Source of the DNA: a virus
Direction: 5' to 3' (one strand)
Virus record (IMG/VR): IMGVR_UViG_3300028591_002019
Location: 1-6,869 of that record
DNA: 6,869 nt
The notes beneath the pieces were generated by a model, which was given only the letters and a program-made list of their open reading frames with translations, did not search any database and had not been told where the DNA came from. The translations under genes and the position numbers were made by a program. Of this stretch, positions 1-6,869 are shown piece by piece; position 1 is the stretch's first letter; each line of letters begins with the position of its first letter.

Positions 1-213
1 ATCAAGAATTTCTTTTTCTCCTTTATATTTACTAAAAATATCAATTGTGATGGTAATTGCGTCCGTGCGGGTATCAAAAGCATCTGCTCTATTATGTCCG
101 CTTAAACGAGCCATCAGCCAAGGAAAATTCTCTACATAAGCCCCGTTATCAGTAATATTATAGCCTAATCCTCTAACCAGGCTACATAAATCAGTTTTTA
201 TTTTCTAAACCAT
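1..213 (-). CDS. Tail-completion / neck protein, DUF3168-like (N-terminal 71 codons; C-terminus lies beyond the window start). Carries an in-frame TAG at codon 3.
   Basis: ATG at 211..213 is preceded by SD GGAGGA (219..224) with a 5-nt spacer. The frame is open down to base 1 except for TAG at 205..207. Translation: MV[TAG]KIKTDLCSLVRGLGYNITDNGAYVENFPWLMARLSGHNRADAFDTRTDAITITIDIFSKYKGEKEILD. From memory, the pattern and the position after a gp10-like gene fit DUF3168/SPP1 gp17-type tail-completion proteins. The start overlaps the preceding ORF by 23 nt. Confidence 0.6.
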
Positions 214-367
214 AAGGGTCCTCCACTAATACATAATTATCTATATTATCAAAACGAGAAAGATACAAATACTTTGCGTATAAGTGTTCTCCTTCTTTTG
301 GAGTAGCATAATCATAAACAAACCCATTTGGGGCAATATAGGTTGTCATTTTTTTATTTAAAGCCAT
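191..367 (-). CDS. Hypothetical small protein, 58 aa
   Basis: ATG at 365..367 is preceded by SD GGAGG (375..379) with a 7-nt spacer. The stop is TGA at 191..193. Translation: MALNKKMTTYIAPNGFVYDYATPKEGEHLYAKYLYLSRFDNIDNYVLVEDPYGLENKN. It is below the length cutoff of the ORF track. I recognise no family. Confidence 0.5.
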   Translation of the reverse strand: MALNKKMTTYIAPNGFVYDYATPKEGEHLYAKYLYLSRFDNIDNYVLVEDPYGLENKN

Positions 368-380
368 TATACAACCTCCA

Positions 381-986
381 TTATGTTATTATAACCTAAA
401 TAGAATTACCGCCACCATAATCTCCTGAATAATTTGGAGTAGTATTAATATTAAACAAAGTATCAAAAATGCCATACAACATTACTAAAAGAGGAAATAA
501 TACCAAAAGGGCTAACATTCCTGCTGTCATTCCCAACAAGTCTTCCATAAATCCCCCTTCTTCACCTCCACCCAACGCTAATTGGGCTTCCGCAATAATT
601 GTTTCGCACATTTCTTCTAAAATTTCCTATGCTTCATTTACTGCTTCCTATGCTTCATCTATGAAGGCTTCCAGCCCTTCATTTAGGGCTGGTTCAAAAT
701 AAGGCTACGCAATCATCTTCCAAGTCCCATATTCAACATATTGCGCGTATTCTGCGGTAGCCTCTGCTTCACATTGAAATCCATCATTATCGGCCGAAAT
801 GGTGCTTTGTAAATATCCTGTATCTACTGGAACAAGAGAAGTGGCTATATCTTCAAAAACTTCGCAGAAAGCGTCGCACGCAGAAGAATAATCTACTTCT
901 ACTTCTGCGTGCTCGCCCATTACATCTGCGTCAAGATAAGTAGGTAATCCTAAATCACTTGGGGTGAATGAAACATATAGTCCCAT
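381..986 (-). CDS. HK97-gp10-family neck/tail-component protein with a hydrophobic C-terminal extension, 201 aa when four in-frame TAGs are read through
   Basis: ATG at 984..986 is preceded by AAGAGGTGA and a 6-nt spacer. Track ORFs 705..986 and 396..611 lie in the same frame and are joined by TAG codons at 705..707, 648..650 and 627..629. A fourth TAG at 396..398 is followed five codons later by TAA at 381..383. The motifs VPVDTGYLQSTI and YAQYVEYGTWKMIA[TAG]PYFEPAL match the HK97 gp10-like family signature as I recall it (vPvdTG.L..si ... YA.yVEfGT.kM.AQPf..PA). The C-terminal part contains one TM-like stretch, LLGMTAGMLALLVLFPLLVMLYGIF. Confidence 0.75.
624..658 (-). repeat. 14-nt direct repeat at 21-nt spacing (ttcctatgcttcat at 624..637 and 645..658); each copy carries an in-frame TAG
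   Basis: The two copies are exact matches read directly from the sequence. On the coding strand each copy reads ATGAAGCATAGGAA, so both encode the in-frame core EA[TAG]E (copy at 624..637 within NEA[TAG]EI, copy at 645..658 within DEA[TAG]EA). Confidence 0.7.
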
Positions 987-992
987 AGGATT

Positions 993-1223
993 TCACCTCT
1001 TTATTTCTTTTTTTAAATCATCTAAATCATTTTGTAATAAACTGGTTTGTTTTTCCAATTCAAAAGTGCGCTCAATTACTTGGTTATGTAAATTAACCTT
1101 TTTTTCTAACTGTTCTAATCTATATGCTATTAGTGCTTGATTTTTGTTATTAGAAAGAAAATTGCCAATTAATGAACCTATAAAGGTTATAATTGCTACA
1201 ATAATTGTTTCTGTTATCGCCAT
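993..1223 (-). CDS. Small membrane-anchored coiled-coil protein, 76 aa (BhlA/XhlA-like architecture; function uncertain)
   Basis: The preferred start is ATG 1221..1223 (MAITET...), preceded by GAGGT about 9 nt upstream. The track start at 1241 has no SD and overlaps the previous gene. The stop is TGA at 993..995. The N-terminal hydrophobic helix is TIIVAIITFIGSLIGNFL. It is followed by a charged heptad-like region, LEQLEKKVNLHNQVIERTFELEKQTSLLQNDLDDLKKEIKR. Confidence 0.65.
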   Translation of the reverse strand: MAITETIIVAIITFIGSLIGNFLSNNKNQALIAYRLEQLEKKVNLHNQVIERTFELEKQTSLLQNDLDDLKKEIKR

Positions 1224-1230
1224 ATCTTTA

Positions 1231-1767
1231 TTACCTCGCATTAAAACAATTTACATAATAACCAGCGGGGTCCAAAGATGTCCCCGTATTAGGCCCAATT
1301 ATATACCCACTAACATCACTTGTTAAAACAACAGAAAATTTTCCTGCGTCTTTTTTTGTAATACTAACAGTAATAGCAGGAGCATCAGAACTATTGCCGC
1401 CACGCTTTACCGTAGTAGTTCCATTGTCATAGGTAACAAAATAATATTTTATACTGCTGCTATTAGAAGGAATAGAAGTCAAGCAAGACATAAAAGTTAA
1501 ATAAAACTTTTCGGTAGGAGCATTATTAAGTGTCAAAGTAAGTGTTCTATTAATTTGTTTATAAATATAACCACCAGAAGCACCAACACCAGTGCCTCCA
1601 TAGCCCCAACCAGTCCAATAAGTATCTCTTTCAGTTCCTCCAACTGAAATACTATCTACCGCAGTAGCCATTTCTGCTACAGTCATTGTTCCACTTCCGC
1701 CGGTCTTTGTGCGGATAGCATTACCAAGAGCAGTTAAATCAGCAGTGTTTTCTAAACTATACGCCAT
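1231..1767 (-). CDS. Fibre-associated / putative distal receptor-binding protein, 178 aa
   Basis: ATG at 1765..1767 overlaps the upstream TAA (TAATG junction) and is preceded by AGGGGGGAG. The stop is TAA at 1231..1233. The track start at 1800 is a TTG lying inside the upstream fibre gene. The N-terminal motif LTALGNAIRTKTGGSGTMTVAEMATAV is one I recall from fibre-module proteins of Firmicutes phages. The remainder is Gly/Thr/Ser-rich and looks beta-type. Confidence 0.75.
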   Translation of the reverse strand: MAYSLENTADLTALGNAIRTKTGGSGTMTVAEMATAVDSISVGGTERDTYWTGWGYGGTGVGASGGYIYKQINRTLTLTLNNAPTEKFYLTFMSCLTSIPSNSSSIKYYFVTYDNGTTTVKRGGNSSDAPAITVSITKKDAGKFSVVLTSDVSGYIIGPNTGTSLDPAGYYVNCFNAR

Positions 1768-3347
1768 TAATAACTCCCCCCTACTGTAATTTCTTCCCAA
1801 GTGTAAGTAGCGTTATTTACGCCTTTAACACATTTTAGCATATAAGTGCCCGCAGTTTCAGGAGCAGCGGGTAATCCTGTAAGAGTAGAACTAATTTCAT
1901 TATTGGCATCAATATTAATACCTGCGCCCGCAGTATAAGTTGCGCCTCCGCCAGAGCCACTAATAACTCCATTGCTATCAATAGTAATCGTGCTACCATC
2001 TACCTTAACTCCGCCAAGAGTTGAAGTAGAAGCAACTGGAAGTTTATCTGGGGTTAAAATTGAACTATATTGAATTTGTCCTCGGGTTTGTGTGCCGTCT
2101 TCTTCTTCGTGGAAATAACGGATACTATTGCTGGAAAATTCAACCTAATCTCCCATATAATCTTCAAATAAGGGGTCTTCGCTCTCTTCCTCTTCGGTAG
2201 AAATCTGTCTTGTCTTATATTCTGTTAGTTGTAATCCATAAGTAGATAAAGTTGTATTACTGGGAGGACTTATAAAATTTTCAATAGTAATACCCTGACT
2301 TGAACTTATAGATACCTAATCAGCCTTATTATCTGGGTCTTCTGGATGAGTAGTATCAAATCCAAATAATTCTAAACTTCCTGCGGATAAAGAAGTGCCC
2401 GTTACTTCTGCGCCACTTTCAAACAAATCAATTGTTAAACTACCATCAGTAAGCATTGTTTGTCCCTATAACTAAAAAGTTTCTGGCATAGAAGAAGTAA
2501 GAGTAATACTATCAGGCTCTAAACCAGTATGGAGTGTTTCAGTATCAAAATTAACTCCACTACTTGCGACACTAATTTCATTATTCTAATCAATAGTAAT
2601 TCCACTACCAGCGGTATAGGTTGCTCCCCCAGAGGGAAGATTAGCCAAAGCAGTATCTACATAGTTTTCAGTAGCAACCTTACTACCTCCTGCGTTAGCA
2701 GTCGTTAAGCCATTTGCGTCGGTGCTATAACTATTACATCCTACATATAAATTACCGCGTAAATATTCATTACCATCCCAGTCTCTTGTAAAAATATTTT
2801 TACGCTAATTCGCCGCCGTGCCATTACCTACAATGTTCTAAAAAATCATATTGCTATCAATCTCATTACAAAATCCTTCTGCGTGCTAATACGCACTTTT
2901 TGCTACGGTTTTATAACCTTCGGCGTGAGAATAATTTCCTTCGGCATCTCCTGAACCCTCTGCGTGTGAATATTGTCCGTCTGCCGTAGAATTATTTGAA
3001 GCAAAAGAAAACATACCAATCGCACGGCCCTAATTAGTTCCTACTGCGTAATTTCCAATGTTAGATAAATTAAAATCAGTTGCGTAACCTAACATTACTG
3101 ATTTAGTGCCTGCGCCGGCTAACACTCTATCATTTAAATCCCAAGAAACAGTTCTATTATTTTCAGTTAATCCATTAGTAAAAGTATAAGAAGCATTGCT
3201 ACTTAATATACCATCATTATCAACTGTAATTGTTGAGTTATCAGGTTTTACTAAACCAAGAGTTGAAGAGGTAGCCTTGCCAGGAAGGCTACCTTTAATT
3301 AACTCAACTAATTTAGTAAGCCCGACATTATCTAAAAATTTTGCCAT
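1767..3347 (-). CDS. Large tail/neck fibre protein, 526 aa, containing nine in-frame TAG codons
   Basis: ATG at 3345..3347 is preceded by SD GGAGG (3357..3361). I translated the single frame by hand through to TAA at 1767..1769. It has no TAA or TGA in 527 codons. In-frame TAGs are at 3030, 2886, 2838, 2805, 2586, 2472, 2466, 2316 and 2145 (first base of the plus-strand cta). Fibre motifs occur on both sides of the TAGs: LGLVKPDNSTITVDNDGILS; YSHAEG-type repeats; NIVGNGTAAN[TAG]RKNIFTRDWDGNEYLRGNLYVG; GGATYTAGSGITID[TAG]NNEISV and GGGATYTAGAGINIDANNEISS; LGGVKVDGSTITIDSNGVISG; and the C-terminal PAAPETAGTYMLKCVKGVNNATYTWEEI. Confidence 0.85.
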
Positions 3348-3361
3348 ATGGGCTTACCTCC

Positions 3362-4060
3362 TTAAACAGCGCTTGCGTCATTCCAAATTGATGCGACTTC
3401 ACTATTGCTTAACGCAGAAATTGACATTTCTGTATCGCCAATAATCTCCCAAGCGTTATTTACATAAACATATTCAGTATAAACCTAATTAGTTCCTGTG
3501 GTTGCTTTTTCAACTAAATAAATCTTTGAAGAATTACCAGTTTGAGGCAATTCTCTAACAACCTCAAAACTGAATGAACTAATACCACTTAATGCGGTAG
3601 TAATATCTGCCATTGTAGCCACTTTATTACTGGAAGCATCATAAGCAGTATTAAATACTAATGCGTCTTGCTTACCAGCAATAGAAGGATTAATATAATC
3701 ATCAAAATATGTGTCTAAACCTATCGTTTCTCCAGGTTCAGCACTTGGAGATGGGTCGCCTAATTGTATTGACCAGAGTGGGACATACTCAACCCTTAAA
3801 TGGGGAGTAGTTCCCTCTTCACCATAGAAAATAATAGTGGTGTCATCCACAGGGATTTCGCTCCAATCAACAGTAGGGATATCAGCCATTGTTGCTACTT
3901 TATTAGTGCTTGCGTTATATGCGGTATTAAACACTAATGCGTCTTGTTTATCTCTTACATCAGAGGCGTTCGCTTTTTCTGCTAACGCAGTTTTTATAAG
4001 CCCACTATAATATAATAATTGTTCTCCGGTTAAAACTTTACTATAATCTAATTGTGCCAT
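3362..4060 (-). CDS. Fibre protein, 232 aa, with one in-frame TAG at codon 192
   Basis: ATG at 4058..4060 is preceded by SD AAGGAG (4071..4076). Track ORF 3485..4060 ends at TAG 3485..3487. The same frame continues for 40 more codons to TAA at 3362..3364, which sits just upstream of the SD of the next gene. The readthrough sequence is KIYLVEKATTGTN[TAG]VYTEYVYVNNAWEIIGDTEMSISALSNSEVASIWNDASAV. It contains an internal duplicated module, KQDALVFNTAY.AS.NKVATMADI. Confidence 0.85.
3602..3673 (-). repeat. Copy 2 of the diverged 72-nt intragenic repeat encoding KQDALVFNTAYDASSNKVATMADI
   Basis: It matches 3878..3949 at 22 of 24 amino acids, 276 nt apart in the same frame. This looks like module duplication within a fibre shaft. 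Confidence 0.8.
3878..3949 (-). repeat. Copy 1 of the diverged 72-nt intragenic repeat encoding KQDALVFNTAYNASTNKVATMADI
   Basis: See the partner copy at 3602..3673. Confidence 0.8.
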
Positions 4061-4080
4061 ATATTAAAATCTCCTTTTAT

Positions 4081-4485
4081 TTAAGAATTCCAAATAGCGA
4101 GAATATCACTATTTGTTAGATATTGAATATTAGATGAAATCGTTGAACCAACTAAACTAATCCCGTTTCCCGCAGTTAAAGTTTCTTGCTTTTCAGCCAA
4201 TCCTTCATCTACATATTCAATTGTGGCATATTCGCTTAAATCAATATCTCCCGCGCTAATATTCGTCGCAATCTCTTTAATATCTTCGGGAGTAAAATAA
4301 TCTACTCCTTTTTCAGGAGTTTTTCCTTTTAAAGAAGCCAACCATTCAGCCTGCGTTCCAGAGAAGCCATTATCAACAGCAATCTCATAAGCGGTTTTAC
4401 CGGCGGGACCACGGTAAGTAATATTACCTAATGAGAGTTGAACTTCTACGGGATTAATAGCATTTAAAACTTCAATACTTGCCAT
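4081..4485 (-). CDS. Fibre protein, 134 aa
   Basis: ATG at 4483..4485 overlaps the upstream TAA (TAATG junction) and is preceded by GGGGGGAG. The stop is TAA at 4081..4083. It contains GPAGKTAYEIAVDNGFSGTQAEWLASLKG, a motif I recall as very common in phage tail-fibre proteins (sAYEiAv.nGF.Gte.eWL.SLkG). Its C-terminus LTNSDILAIWNS resembles the C-terminus of the next fibre gene. Confidence 0.85.
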   Translation of the reverse strand: MASIEVLNAINPVEVQLSLGNITYRGPAGKTAYEIAVDNGFSGTQAEWLASLKGKTPEKGVDYFTPEDIKEIATNISAGDIDLSEYATIEYVDEGLAEKQETLTAGNGISLVGSTISSNIQYLTNSDILAIWNS

Positions 4486-4814
4486 TAGAATTTCACTCCC
4501 CCCAGAACTTTAAATTTCGCAGGACCTAATACAGTATCTACTCGGCCATCTGCCGTATCAACTTCTACATCATAATAATAATTTCCAACGGGAATATTAG
4601 TATCATTTGTAGTAAGTCTAATGACAGCCTTATTATTTACAAATTCATTAATAACCTTTTGGATACGAGGATTTGTTTTCTCTAATTCATCATTAACAGT
4701 AAAATAAACAGTATCTCCTTCGTCCAATAGGTAATCATCAAAAGAAATAACAAAATCTCCTGTGTCCTTCGCGATAATAGAAATTATTTGAGTGTCGTTA
4801 TCAAATGTTATCAT
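4485..4814 (-). CDS. Beta-rich structural protein, 109 aa (possible Ig-like/BppU_N-like fibre anchor; tentative)
   Basis: ATG at 4812..4814 is preceded by SD GAGGAGG. The stop is TAA at 4485..4487. The pattern GNYYYDVEVDTADGRVDTVLGPAKFKV resembles Ig-like decoration or baseplate-upper-protein N-domains. The function call is weak. Confidence 0.75.
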   Translation of the reverse strand: MITFDNDTQIISIIAKDTGDFVISFDDYLLDEGDTVYFTVNDELEKTNPRIQKVINEFVNNKAVIRLTTNDTNIPVGNYYYDVEVDTADGRVDTVLGPAKFKVLGGVKF

Positions 4815-5130
4815 TTAATTCAACCTCCTCAACAACCTCCATTAAAACGCTGAACCATTCCCTGCCTCTCTTTACCTGGGTCATAAGTTTATATACATCG
4901 CCATTAAAGATGTAGCGGGTATTCACATATTCATCTAATTTAATATCAGTAATAACATTAATTAATTTTTGAGTTGTAACGCCAAATTGCGTAATTTGTT
5001 CGCCCGTTGCGGTAATAGAGCAATGGGCCTTTATTTTTTCGTGAGGTTCTACTTGAACGCCAGAAGAACCTCCTTGTGTATCATCGGTAGGGATGACACG
5101 AATACGCTAAATTAAATCTCGTTTAATCAT
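4801..5130 (-). CDS. Head-closure / head-tail adaptor protein (Phage_H_T_join, SPP1 gp16-like), 109 aa, with an in-frame TAG at codon 8
   Basis: This gene is absent from the ORF track. ATG at 5128..5130 overlaps the upstream TGA (ATGA junction). TAG is at 5107..5109, and the frame then stays open to TGA at 4801..4803. Translation: MIKRDLI[TAG]RIRVIPTDDTQGGSSGVQVEPHEKIKAHCSITATGEQITQFGVTTQKLINVITDIKLDEYVNTRYIFNGDVYKLMTQVKRGREWFSVLMEVVEEVELNDNI. The pattern (RI.vI, DD..GG, a.i.p.sG.E, RI.fnG..Y.i) and the position after the gp6-like gene fit the family. No ATG downstream of the TAG could give a comparable product. Confidence 0.8.
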
Positions 5131-5420
5131 ATCATCTTCACCTTTCTATTCTTATTTAACATCCATCTAACTCTATCGCTGTAAAAACTATCATAAGTCA
5201 TTGAAACGCCAGAAGAAGATTGCTGTGTAGTGCCTTCACTCCCAATGCGGTTGTAGCGCTCAACCACCATACTGATAACCACAGCATCTAACTTTTTATC
5301 GTATTCAGGCAAATTACAATAAGTGTAAGCCTCTTCTTTACACAGAGAAATCAATGTATATAATAATTCATCTTCGGTGTCGTCTTGAATGTTTAGCAAA
5401 AGTTTTAATTTATTTAACAT
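5127..5420 (-). CDS. Head-tail connector protein (gp6-like, DNA-packaging/connector family), 97 aa
   Basis: ATG at 5418..5420 is preceded by SD AAGGAGAG (5426..5433). The stop is TGA at 5127..5129. The N-terminal pattern LKLLLNIQDDTEDELLYTLISLCKEEAYTYCN is typical of gp6-like connectors. The gene lies immediately downstream of the capsid gene. Confidence 0.8.
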   Translation of the reverse strand: MLNKLKLLLNIQDDTEDELLYTLISLCKEEAYTYCNLPEYDKKLDAVVISMVVERYNRIGSEGTTQQSSSGVSMTYDSFYSDRVRWMLNKNRKVKMI

Positions 5421-5437
5421 AATTTCTCTCCTTCGCT

Positions 5438-5478
5438 AAAAAAAATAAGGGCCTACCCACCGAAGTAGGCAGGCCCTT
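5438..5478 (-). terminator. Rho-independent terminator downstream of the major capsid gene
   Basis: The minus-strand RNA would be AAGGGCCUGCCUAC-UUCG-GUGGGUAGGCCCUU followed by A-UUUUUUUU. The stem arms are 5449..5460 and 5465..5476, extendable by two A-U pairs. The stem is 12 bp including two G-U wobbles, with a UUCG tetraloop. The wobbles would be C-A mismatches on the plus-strand transcript, so the hairpin is oriented for the minus strand. Confidence 0.8.
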
Positions 5479-5498
5479 TTATATTAAAACATTATCAA

Positions 5499-6299
5499 TT
5501 AGGGAGTTTCAGGCTCGTCGTCTTCAAGCATCTTAACAACACGGGTAGCGTCGGTAAGAGCAACAAGCATAACTTTACGAGCATAAACGGTATTCTTTCT
5601 ATGGTCGGCGTCTCTCTCTTGCTCGGTTTCTGCGCCTTTCTTTGTAAAGATAGTAACAGCCTCTTTGGTAGCAAGATAAGCAGTGCCCTTTGGAACAGCC
5701 TTACTTACATAAACAGGAACACCGCAAATGGAGCCAATATAACCAGTGCGTGCGAAATCTTCAACATACTTTAAGTCGTCGGCAAGTGCCTTACGAATAG
5801 TAGCCTTGATTTCAGGATTAATAAGAATGAATAAGCCCTTCTCGTCCTCATAAGGATACATAGCAATAGCATCAACGAAATCGCTGAAAGTCCAATCAAC
5901 GCCATATTTAACAATAGAAGCGCTATTCATTTCAGCAACAACCTTTTCAGTAAGGTCATTAGTCATACGCTGTGCTAAACCAGCAAGACCAGCATCAACA
6001 ACCATTGGGTCAGTCATTTCTTGCTCGTCGTAGTAAGCAAAACGACCCTGGGTAACACCAACTTCATAATCTTTATCACTGAAAGAAACAAGGATTTCAT
6101 CGGTATTACCTTCGCCCATTTTAAGGTCTTCTACATCGCCAGTAGAAGTATAAGTGTGGATAACCTTCTTCATACCAGGGTTCTCAACGAGGCTATCGTC
6201 GTGAGTAGCAAACTGGCTCATATCAAGATTAGTAATAAGTAAATCTTCAAGTTTGTTTTCTAAAACAAAATTTTCATAAATAGTATGATTTTGTGCCAT
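5499..6299 (-). CDS. Major capsid protein (HK97-fold, short approx. 270-aa type), 266 aa, with no in-frame TAG
   Basis: ATG at 6297..6299 is preceded by SD AAGGAG (6310..6315). The stop is TAA at 5499..5501. The gene lies between the scaffold and connector genes and is followed by a strong terminator. Size and sequence character fit small HK97-like capsid proteins; the family assignment is from memory only. Confidence 0.85.
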   Translation of the reverse strand: MAQNHTIYENFVLENKLEDLLITNLDMSQFATHDDSLVENPGMKKVIHTYTSTGDVEDLKMGEGNTDEILVSFSDKDYEVGVTQGRFAYYDEQEMTDPMVVDAGLAGLAQRMTNDLTEKVVAEMNSASIVKYGVDWTFSDFVDAIAMYPYEDEKGLFILINPEIKATIRKALADDLKYVEDFARTGYIGSICGVPVYVSKAVPKGTAYLATKEAVTIFTKKGAETEQERDADHRKNTVYARKVMLVALTDATRVVKMLEDDEPETP

Positions 6300-6328
6300 A
6301 ATAGCATTTCTCCTTTATAATAAAATTT

Positions 6329-6869
6329 TTAATTGTGAGAGAGTTGCTTATATAGTTCAGGATTAGTTCTATAAATTTCTGCCTGCTGTTGGATATTCAA
6401 CTTTTTAAACTCCTCACGCGTTAGGCCGGTTTGTCTTGCTGACCCGGTCTTGGGAGCAGGAGACGCAATGCGTTTTGCCACGGCATCTGCCACGGCTCCG
6501 TTAAACATCTTCTCAAAAGTGTTAATATTATTCATCATAGTTTCAGCGTCTTCTGCGACAATATAATCAATAAATTCAACGGGTAAATTACGATTTGATA
6601 AAACCTTCATCGCTTCAATTTTATTTTGAGCGATAGCGAAATCTCTTTCCCTCTATTCAAGTTCTTGTAATTTCTGCGTATATTCGTATTCTTTACGCTG
6701 GCTTTCGTCCATATTCCGCAGTTTCTCGGCTTCTGCCATTTTGTTCTCTAAATCTTTTTCCCATTTCTTCTACGCACTACTAACTCTGCGGTCGCCCTCT
6801 TTTTGAAGTAAGGCCTGGACTTCTTCTTCCGTATAAGTTTTCGGTGCGTTATCCCCTGTGGTTTCCACA
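6329..6869 (-). CDS. Capsid scaffolding protein (DUF4355-like), C-terminal 180 codons; the N-terminus lies beyond the window end. Carries two in-frame TAGs.
   Basis: Track ORF 6329..6610 extends upstream in the same frame to the window edge, with only TAG codons at 6653..6655 and 6770..6772 and no TAA or TGA. Translation: ...KTYTEEEVQALLQKEGDRRVSSA[TAG]KKWEKDLENKMAEAEKLRNMDESQRKEYEYTQKLQELE[TAG]RERDFAIAQNKIEAMKVLSNRNLP... It is a charged coiled-coil region typical of DUF4355 scaffolds (TqEevn.iv..RlaRe.kKwe). The stop is TAA at 6329..6331. Confidence 0.85.

Follow-up and report, generated by a model that had tools for sequence, protein, structure and literature searches.

A fibre gene with nine in-frame TAG codons in a small tailed phage that probably reads TAG as glutamine

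We analyzed a stretch of viral DNA of 6,869 nucleotides (nt) (IMG/VR record IMGVR_UViG_3300028591_002019, positions 1 to 6,869; hereafter, the window), in which one long reading frame with nine TAG codons occupies positions 1767-3347 of the minus strand. We conclude with high confidence that this frame is a single functional fibre gene and that the small tailed phage to which it belongs translates its virion genes with genetic code 15, in which TAG specifies glutamine (Gln). A preliminary description, made from the sequence alone, had interpreted the frame as one fibre gene. This interpretation was supported by the frame itself, its coding potential, the single ribosome-binding site with ATG, homologous proteins, Gln codons in columns aligned to TAG, and the predicted fold. 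The gene is an ordinary example of the already known TAG-recoded phages of the gut and rumen. Many relatives of the phage were recovered by capsid-based searches; below, L numbers denote loci and P numbers denote proteins.

A reading frame interrupted only by TAG

Under the standard code, no open reading frame (ORF) of at least 60 amino acids (aa) was found between positions 1800 and 3030 on either strand, in agreement with the ORF desert described previously, and only six ORFs of 40-59 aa were present there. When TAG was read as a sense codon, translation of the minus strand ran from ATG at 3347 to TAA at 1767-1769, yielding the 527 codons that had been claimed (526 sense codons and the terminator). 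TAG was found at codons 106, 154, 170, 181, 254, 292, 294, 344 and 401 (TAG 1 to TAG 9), exactly as listed earlier, and TAA and TGA were absent. From the base composition of the gene, 27.5 TAA and TGA codons were expected per 526 codons and none was seen (P(none) = 5e-13), confirming that such a frame is not expected by chance. The other five frames over the same stretch contained 16-81 stops each. Further, the longest run free of TAA and TGA was 279 codons in 1000 windows simulated with a first-order Markov model, compared with 528 codons in the observed sequence. The gene had also been said to carry the highest TAG load in the window. This held for the count (nine) but not for the density, as the HK97 gp10-like gene at 381-986, in which TAG is densest within the window, contains four TAGs in 201 codons (1.99 per 100) and the fibre gene nine in 526 (1.71 per 100).

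Coding potential was measured as codon-usage log-odds, trained on the other genes of the window. In frame 0, the scores of all nine inter-TAG segments lay between +0.18 and +0.50 bits per codon, and every 60-codon window of the gene was positive. In both other frames, the log-odds were negative in every inter-TAG segment and in every 60-codon window. Among the in-frame starts of the gene, a Shine-Dalgarno sequence (AAGGAGG, 9 nt upstream) was found only at codon 1, indicating that the pieces delimited by TAG are not separate genes. At the other end, the terminator shares a nucleotide with the start codon of the downstream 178-aa gene (TAATG; Table 1), suggesting translational coupling of the two genes.

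A search of 5.8 billion proteins returned 585 fibre homologues, many of which are 350-920 residues long. The proteins of this length were continuous across the equivalents of TAG 1 to TAG 5 and possessed both the N-terminal module and the C-terminal end "...TYxWExxTVGGSY". The N-terminal 50 residues of the fibre are near-identical in P0001 and P0007-P0012, and the last 35 residues (…GTYMLKCVKGVNNATYTWEEITVGGSY) matched the C-termini of P0002, P0003, P0005 and P0006 and of the L098 and L099 fibres. Because of these matches, both conserved ends are placed in one frame, flanking all nine TAGs. We concluded that the fibre gene is continuous. For the central insert (residues 255-440, 186 residues), no homologue was found at E <= 0.01; the probability that codons 255-400 lack TAA and TGA by chance was 4e-4. 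No GenBank phage was matched by the whole window in megablast or, in tblastn, by the core of the fibre with its TAG positions set to X, and annotated standard-code phage fibres were therefore unusable as references.

TAG was not confined to the fibre gene. With TAG as sense, the minus strand of the window (1-6869) forms 12 co-directional genes with short gaps or overlaps, and 7 of the 12 contain in-frame TAG (18 in total); no gene contains in-frame TAA or TGA. The 11 complete genes terminate with TAA (8) or TGA (3) and never with TAG. A conserved VIIT/IIIT motif follows the TAG that is located close to the end of the gp10-like gene. An ENA contig (L001; ERZ27256846 k141_775398) was 100% identical to window 4478-6869 and extends the operon upstream through a portal gene (two TAGs), a 129-aa gene (two) and a MuF gene (five), with nine TAGs in all. 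These results show that TAG is recoded throughout the operon.

The sequence motifs noted previously were all found in the translated product: YSHAEG at residues 126 and 139, Y-TAG-HAEG (TAG being the codon) at 153, VGNG at 173 and RDWDGN at 188. The two modules that had been described as duplicated were also located, YTAG.GI.ID.NNEIS (here, letters are residues) at residues 244 and 471, and the other as LGLVKPDNSTITVD at residue 30 and LGGVKVDGSTITID at residue 444. The fibre begins with an N-terminal module, presumed to be the virion-attachment end, and continues with a YadA-like beta-roll and neck, a YTAGxGIxID module and a lineage-specific acidic insert. These are followed by a STLGGVKVDGSTITID module, the second YTAG module and a conserved C-terminal beta-hairpin tip.

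A profile built from the family alignment matched the heads of YadA-like adhesins (BpaC, 7o23, E = 4e-12; CbpF; UspA1), and PF05658 is recorded on several of the fibre homologues. The closest homologue, P0001 (77% identical), was modelled with AlphaFold2 as a monomer in place of the window protein. The predicted local distance difference test score was above 90 for approximately residues 100-240, which form one continuous beta domain. The TAG-encoded Gln 156 and Gln 172 of P0001 lie at or in beta strands of this domain. The structure prediction proposed in the preliminary description as a check of continuity thus favors one gene, in that the domain with TAG 1 to TAG 4 is a single confident beta domain in the P0001 model. 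In a Foldseek search with the model, the top PDB entries were CbpF, phi29 gp12 and YadA; the matches were weak (E = 4e-3 at best) because only about one third of the model is confident. A model of the TAG-free C-terminal fragment of the fibre was only moderately confident. Together, the profile and the model show a core domain with the predicted fold of a YadA-like beta-roll, which is known from trimeric adhesins.

The likeness to YadA-like heads (BpaC 7o23, CbpF 9u93, UspA1, YadA 1p9h; PF05658) consists of 14-residue xSHAEGxxxxAxGx repeats that are predicted to form a left-handed parallel beta-roll. In contrast to these adhesins, the window protein is a phage virion protein without an autotransporter membrane anchor. 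A second likeness is to two proteins of phi29, gp8.5 (head fibre) and gp12 (pre-neck appendage): PF11133 and PF11962 were found on more distant homologues, gp12 was matched by Foldseek, and the fibre gene of the window is located among head and neck genes. However, PF11133 and PF11962 were not detected in the window protein, which also has no C-terminal Peptidase_G2 chaperone domain. The product, of approximately 56 kDa, is presumably a trimeric, modular fibre or adhesin. Because its gene sits among head-completion and neck genes, an attachment to the head or neck is no less plausible than one to the tail.

The fibre locus is a shuffling hot-spot, and the number and content of its genes vary among the window, L002, L009, L010 and L099. 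The 134-aa and 232-aa genes (3362-4485, minus strand) correspond to N-terminal modules that are fused with fibre modules in relatives, where the fused proteins have 700-900 residues (L009 11821-14079; L010 7450-9576). In L003 and L131, the fibre gene is placed between the MuF and scaffold genes.

The amino acid at TAG

The letter Q at TAG positions of database proteins was rejected as evidence for Gln, as the database translates TAG as Q and the argument is circular. For example, Q156, Q172 and Q377 of P0001 are TAG in the DNA. The Q aligned to TAG 2 and TAG 3 in protein homologues is therefore partly circular, and we compared codons instead. This comparison, which the preliminary description had proposed in the form of residues aligned to the TAG positions, gave CAA or CAG in relatives at TAG 1, TAG 2, TAG 3 and TAG 5 (Table 1). 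One of the genes with a Gln codon in the TAG 2 column (L008) is 1407 codons long and free of TAG. At TAG 5, L129 has Q ("GITIDQNNEIS") in a TAG-free ORF; the same column is Ala in the second copy of the YTAG module of the fibre gene itself. The TAG 3 column is Ala or Val in distant homologues. For TAG 8, a TAG in a similar motif (ETGDxETKSILITGEGITFD) was seen by eye in P0018 of L003, a likeness that was not confirmed by alignment.

Codons were also compared across the genes of whole loci. Against L002 (79% identical), 21 pairs had TAG on one side only; the partner was CAA or CAG in 9 of the 21, and no other amino acid occurred more than three times. L099, a close relative with no in-frame TAG in the corresponding genes, had CAA at 7 of 15 aligned coding TAG sites (P = 4e-6) and, when only well-conserved contexts were considered, at 6 of 8 (P = 4e-7; both P-values against a background of 5%). 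When BLOSUM62 scores were summed over sites, Gln ranked first, with approximately twice the score of Glu, under all filters and with all relatives used. These comparisons show statistically that TAG most probably encodes Gln.

With TAG read as Gln, the Gln content of the fibre is 3.2%, within the range of the neighboring genes. TAG accounts for 26 of 100 Gln codons in this phage, a share above that of CAG. In the fibre gene, its share (9 of 17) is significantly higher than elsewhere in the window (Fisher P = 0.0035).

Two other approaches to the identity of TAG were discarded. Standard-code relatives with 45-65% capsid identity were too divergent to serve as a guide. A nucleotide-context signal (T at position -1, seen at 8 of the 9 TAGs in the fibre gene and at 16 of the 26 in this phage) was not reproduced in relatives, and the share of T at this position is near the third-position T content of 43%.

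Decoding of TAG and alternative readings

Recoding of TAG has been described in temperate phages of two groups, Topaz (22 +/- 3 kb) and Garnet (34 +/- 5 kb), whose integrases are TAG-free and whose relatives use other codes; Topaz prophages occur in standard-code Oscillospiraceae, and a suppressor transfer RNA (tRNA) was detected in only 40% of the TAG-recoded genomes surveyed (bioRxiv 10.1101/2021.08.26.457843). The phages studied here resemble them in their small genomes (22-26 kb in the relatives), low GC content and TAG-free integrase, and in a contiguous block of structural and lysis genes in which TAG would be Gln. Likewise, the clade includes TAG-free relatives, and a suppressor tRNA, often undetected in the published survey as well, was not found here. 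A genome of approximately 20-35 kb, a TAG-free integrase and a recoded lytic block were all present, as seen in the relatives. Thus, the lineage matches the Topaz/Garnet-type picture, as compared by published description rather than by placement in a TerL tree. In contrast to those groups, the only host hint here is a Gastranaerophilaceae bin, and the distant standard-code relatives are Clostridia prophages. The bin contains L091 (JAZNBJ010000071.1), a recoded locus of 20.8 kb with 68% capsid identity that was assigned to a Candidatus Gastranaerophilaceae metagenome-assembled genome; the hint is weak, as this contig has the size of a phage genome and its composition alone may have placed it in the bin.

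The crAss-like and Lak phages share the code 15 reassignment and its concentration in late and structural genes, and in crAss-like phages the change from TAG to Gln was confirmed by metaproteomics (PMC9523058). However, those phages have genomes of 100-650 kb and belong to unrelated lineages with Bacteroidota hosts, whereas the phage described here is siphovirus-like with a genome of approximately 25 kb. Further, crAss-like and Lak phages usually encode suppressor tRNAs and sometimes release factor 2 (RF2), whereas no tRNA gene was found here.

The decoding agent would be a Gln-accepting tRNA with a CUA anticodon. We searched for its gene with ARAGORN at default settings and with Rfam cmscan, which was run at the gathering score on the window, L001-L003, L131 and L134. 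For two complete relatives, the cmscan cut-off was relaxed to E <= 1, and ARAGORN was additionally run with its threshold lowered to 90% and 80%, in intron mode and in mitochondrial mode. The searches covered two complete and two partly read relative genomes of 22-26 kb and the 9.7 kb over which this phage is known. No CUA anticodon was found in them; the calls made by ARAGORN at the 80% threshold were scattered false positives with other anticodons. The suppressor may instead come from the host or a co-resident element, or be a non-canonical RNA. Speculatively, inhibition of release factor 1 (RF1) may allow a near-cognate tRNA-Gln to read TAG. Gln is inserted at UAG in RF1-deficient cells.

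It is conceivable, though we consider it rather unlikely, that the 22-26 kb lineage recodes TAG to Gln without a tRNA gene of its own, by an undescribed switch. Possible candidates are a phage protein that disables RF1, combined with first-position wobble of the host tRNA-Gln(CUG), a non-canonical suppressor RNA, and an amber suppressor supplied by the host or a helper. If such a switch exists, the fibre gene with its nine TAGs would be a sensitive natural reporter of its activity.

With TAG read as Gln, synthesis of the fibre would depend completely on efficient amber suppression by this amino acid. Suppression of 90% per site would, over nine sites, yield less than 40% full-length fibre, and a cell that terminates at TAG would produce only a stub of 105 residues. 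Such a stub fits the published idea that recoding silences lytic genes until the code switches, and the recoding may therefore have a regulatory role.

The gene content of the relatives bears on this model. L131 (22 kb) possesses an integrase and two divergent genes with no TAG, and 21 of its 22 other genes carry TAG; the L009 integrase is also free of TAG. TAG-free lysogeny genes, with TAG in nearly all others, fit the model of recoding as a switch. An alternative is that the phage does not switch the code at all, and that a host or co-resident element constitutively decodes TAG as Gln. The lack of a tRNA gene in the two complete and two partly read relatives favors this alternative, as does the occurrence of TAG in most genes of L009 and L010, including TerL and the putative early genes. 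However, the integrase and divergent lysogeny genes of L131 and L009 lack TAG, unlike the lytic genes, which is a signature of expression in a standard-code cell and argues against constitutive decoding. The major capsid gene also avoids TAG, a weak argument as it contains only 6 Gln codons. We know of no bacterium in which TAG has been described as Gln. Topaz and Garnet prophages were published from standard-code Oscillospiraceae and Prevotella (bioRxiv 10.1101/2021.08.26.457843). We therefore regard constitutive decoding by the host or a co-resident element as improbable.

It is still less probable that TAG, as a sense codon, specifies a different amino acid, e.g., Glu, Lys, Tyr, Leu, Ser or pyrrolysine. 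Glu ranked second in the BLOSUM62 analysis, relatives have Glu, Lys, Leu or Asn at some sites, and alignment by repeat register can put the Y-x-HAEG site over the Ser of the xSHAEG repeats. However, with all relatives used, the score of Gln was about double that of Glu under every filter, and CAA was the commonest partner in L099, as CAA and CAG together were in L002. Further, relatives using either of the two codes have Gln in the column of the last repeat (Q-H-[AV]-x-G). With regard to pyrrolysine, no pyl genes or tRNA were found in the gene lists and tRNA scans of the relative genomes.

Nine in-frame stops under the standard code, and a central region of 186 residues without a homologue, are features that a decaying pseudogene or a defective prophage remnant with accumulated nonsense mutations would also show. 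Mixed stop types and frameshifts, which the preliminary description had named as marks of a pseudogene, were both absent: TAG was the sole interruption of the frame, where approximately 27 TAA and TGA codons would be expected, and no frameshift was found. The coding signal was undiminished in all segments. Essential genes, such as those for portal, MuF, scaffold and TerL (10-12 TAGs), show the same TAG-only pattern in this phage and its relatives, and TAG was never used as a terminator. Thus, decay of the gene is hardly credible. That the TAG-delimited pieces are several small genes, or that only the first 105 residues are made, has a negligible probability: a standard-code ORF does exist at 3030-3347 (105 aa), with a few ORFs of 40-54 aa, but no internal start has a Shine-Dalgarno sequence, some in-frame fragments comprise 1, 10 or 15 codons, the homologues are continuous, the confident beta domain spans TAG 1 to TAG 4, and the C-terminal tip would be left without a start.

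Several results weigh against a single recoded fibre gene with Gln at every TAG. Neither ARAGORN nor Rfam detected a tRNA in the window, L001-L003, L009+L089, L010+L090, L131-L134 or the other recoded loci, and the decoding step is therefore proposed from the coding pattern. The assignment of Gln to TAG 4 and TAG 6 to TAG 9 (five sites) is extrapolated from the other sites. TAG 6 to TAG 9 lie in the insert for which no homologue was found, where the frame is supported by its continuity, coding potential and conserved flanks. At a few TAG sites outside the fibre gene, the residue in L099 is Leu, Ala, Glu, Thr, Asp, Pro or Val; such partners are expected for variable columns, and the identification of Gln is therefore statistical. 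When the distant standard-code relatives were used alone, Asn, Glu and Gln ranked alike, and these relatives were uninformative. Finally, the Pfam YadA_head model did not match the window protein at E <= 0.01.

For annotation, a single recoded fibre gene has direct consequences. Gene callers that use the standard code leave a hole of 1.2 kb, and the main adhesin of the phage, the protein most relevant to host range, would be missed or fragmented. Code 15 restores the complete head-neck-fibre operon, and the correct annotation of the adhesin is the main, practical value of this result. The phage also adds a further example of recoding from TAG to Gln among small temperate-type phages of the gut and rumen, whose genomes of approximately 30 genes are a tractable place to find what switches the code.

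Relatives and neighboring genes

The two complete genomes (IMG/VR), L009+L089 and L010+L090, are 25.5 and 26.1 kb long, with terminal repeats of 145 and 127 nt, and show 81% capsid identity. Most genes of both are TAG-recoded, and TerL contains 10-11 TAGs. In both, one third of the 25-kb genome is occupied by a single frame of approximately 2,800-2,900 codons, including more than 30 TAGs, that encodes a giant tail protein. L099 (Ga0326512_10000871) is a contig of 25 kb in which the gene order is the same, the GC content is 0.33, and TerL, portal, MuF, scaffold, capsid, fibre and gp10 contain no in-frame TAG. It has the appearance of a sister of the recoded phages that is depleted in TAG and has not yet been recoded (or has reverted), and it is useful for dating the recoding and documents how recently it arose. 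Capsid relatives at 45-65% identity also lack in-frame TAG, and several of them are located in large Clostridia contigs (e.g., Dorea). The nearest capsids in GenBank, of Staphylococcus and Enterococcus siphoviruses, were 24-27% identical. For L037 and L022, the coverage by long ORFs rises more when TGA is taken as sense than when TAG is (L037: 0.52 to 0.81), and within this capsid family the two loci may represent members that have recoded TGA.

The features of the fibre gene and its neighbors are listed in Table 1. The fibre-like cluster (4081-4485, 3362-4060, the 526-residue gene and 1231-1767) lies between the connector gene and the gp10-like gene.

Table 1. Features on the minus strand of the window, with the codons and motifs at each TAG of the fibre gene (x, residue at TAG in the motifs of TAG rows; HMM, assigned by hidden Markov model)
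Feature	Coordinates	Strand	Remarks
Fibre gene	1767-3347	-	526 sense codons + TAA; nine in-frame TAG, probably read as Gln
Shine-Dalgarno AAGGAGG	3357-3363	-	9 nt 5' of ATG; overlaps TAA (3362-3364) of upstream 232-aa gene
TAATG overlap	1765-1769	-	fibre TAA 1767-1769; ATG of next gene (178 aa) 1765-1767
N-terminal module MAKFLDNVGLTKLVELIKGSLPGKATSSTLGLVKPDNSTITVD...	3192-3347	-	residues 1-52; match to phrog_27494 (virion structural protein)
YadA-like head / left-handed beta-roll (predicted)	2628-3050	-	~residues 100-240; xSHAEG repeats, VGNG, RDWDGNEYL, GGSKVATENYVD neck
Central insert	2028-2570	-	~residues 260-440; acidic; carries TAG 6-9
C-terminal module LGGVKVDGSTITID	1977-2018	-	
C-terminal module YTAGAGINIDANNEIS	1890-1937	-	
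Conserved C-terminal tip PAAPETAGTYMLKCVKGVNNATYTWEEITVGGSY	1770-1874	-	common to P0002/3/5/6, L098, L099
Code-15 fibre peptide			SAYQHAEGFCNEIDSNMIFQNIVGNGTAANQR
TAG 1 (codon 106)	3030-3032	-	CAA in L002 (NYAVGTNxGRA vs NYAVGANQGRA)
TAG 2 (codon 154)	2886-2888	-	Y-x-HAEG, last beta-roll repeat; CAA/CAG in L003, L004-L008, L127; TAG in L002
TAG 3 (codon 170)	2838-2840	-	IFxNIVGNG; CAA in L003, L103; TAG in L002
TAG 4 (codon 181)	2805-2807	-	variable column (Asn, Ala, His); uninformative
TAG 5 (codon 254)	2586-2588	-	YTAGSGITIDxNNEIS; CAA in L098
TAG 6 + TAG 7 (codons 292, 294)	2466-2474 (2472-2474, 2466-2468)	-	ETFxLxGQT, in insert
TAG 8 (codon 344)	2316-2318	-	DNKADxVSISS, in insert
TAG 9 (codon 401)	2145-2147	-	YMGDxVEF, in insert
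Scaffold (DUF4355)	6329-6868	-	2 TAG; HMM
Major capsid	5499-6299	-	0 TAG; HMM
gp6-like head-tail connector	5127-5420	-	0 TAG; HMM
Gene	4801-5130	-	1 TAG
Gene	4485-4814	-	0 TAG
Fibre-like gene, 134 aa	4081-4485	-	0 TAG
Fibre-like gene, 232 aa	3362-4060	-	1 TAG
Fibre-like gene, 178 aa	1231-1767	-	0 TAG
Gene, 76 aa	993-1223	-	0 TAG
HK97 gp10-like	381-986	-	4 TAG; HMM
Partial gene	1-213	-	1 TAG

Further observations concern single neighboring genes. An exact look-up of the downstream 178-aa protein returned no record. The 76-residue protein has an N-terminal transmembrane helix and a coiled coil and is conserved in L009 (14099-14314); judged by these features, it may be a holin or an XhlA-like lysis protein. 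The gp10-like protein ends in a hydrophobic, transmembrane-like segment (GMTAGMLALLVLFPLLVMLYGIF), which is unusual in a tail-completion or neck protein and is kept in the TAG-free L099. In L009, a TAG-free tyrosine recombinase gene (14311-15249, opposite strand) lies inside the structural operon, between the genes of the transmembrane protein and the gp10-like protein; it is absent from this position in the window and in L010.

Two non-coding elements were also found. Between the capsid and connector genes, 20 nt 3' of the capsid stop, a GC-rich hairpin of 14 bp is followed by a T-run (5447-5478, minus strand); this element resembles an intrinsic terminator or attenuator. An intergenic region of approximately 140 nt before the scaffold gene is conserved in L001 (2640-2775, upstream of the window), L002, L009 and L010 and largely absent from L099. 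It was considered as a tRNA and rejected, as it resembles hairpins and a promoter. Its two hairpins are GGACAAT...ATTGTCC and TGGAC...GTCCA, and the region may serve as a late promoter or a regulatory RNA.

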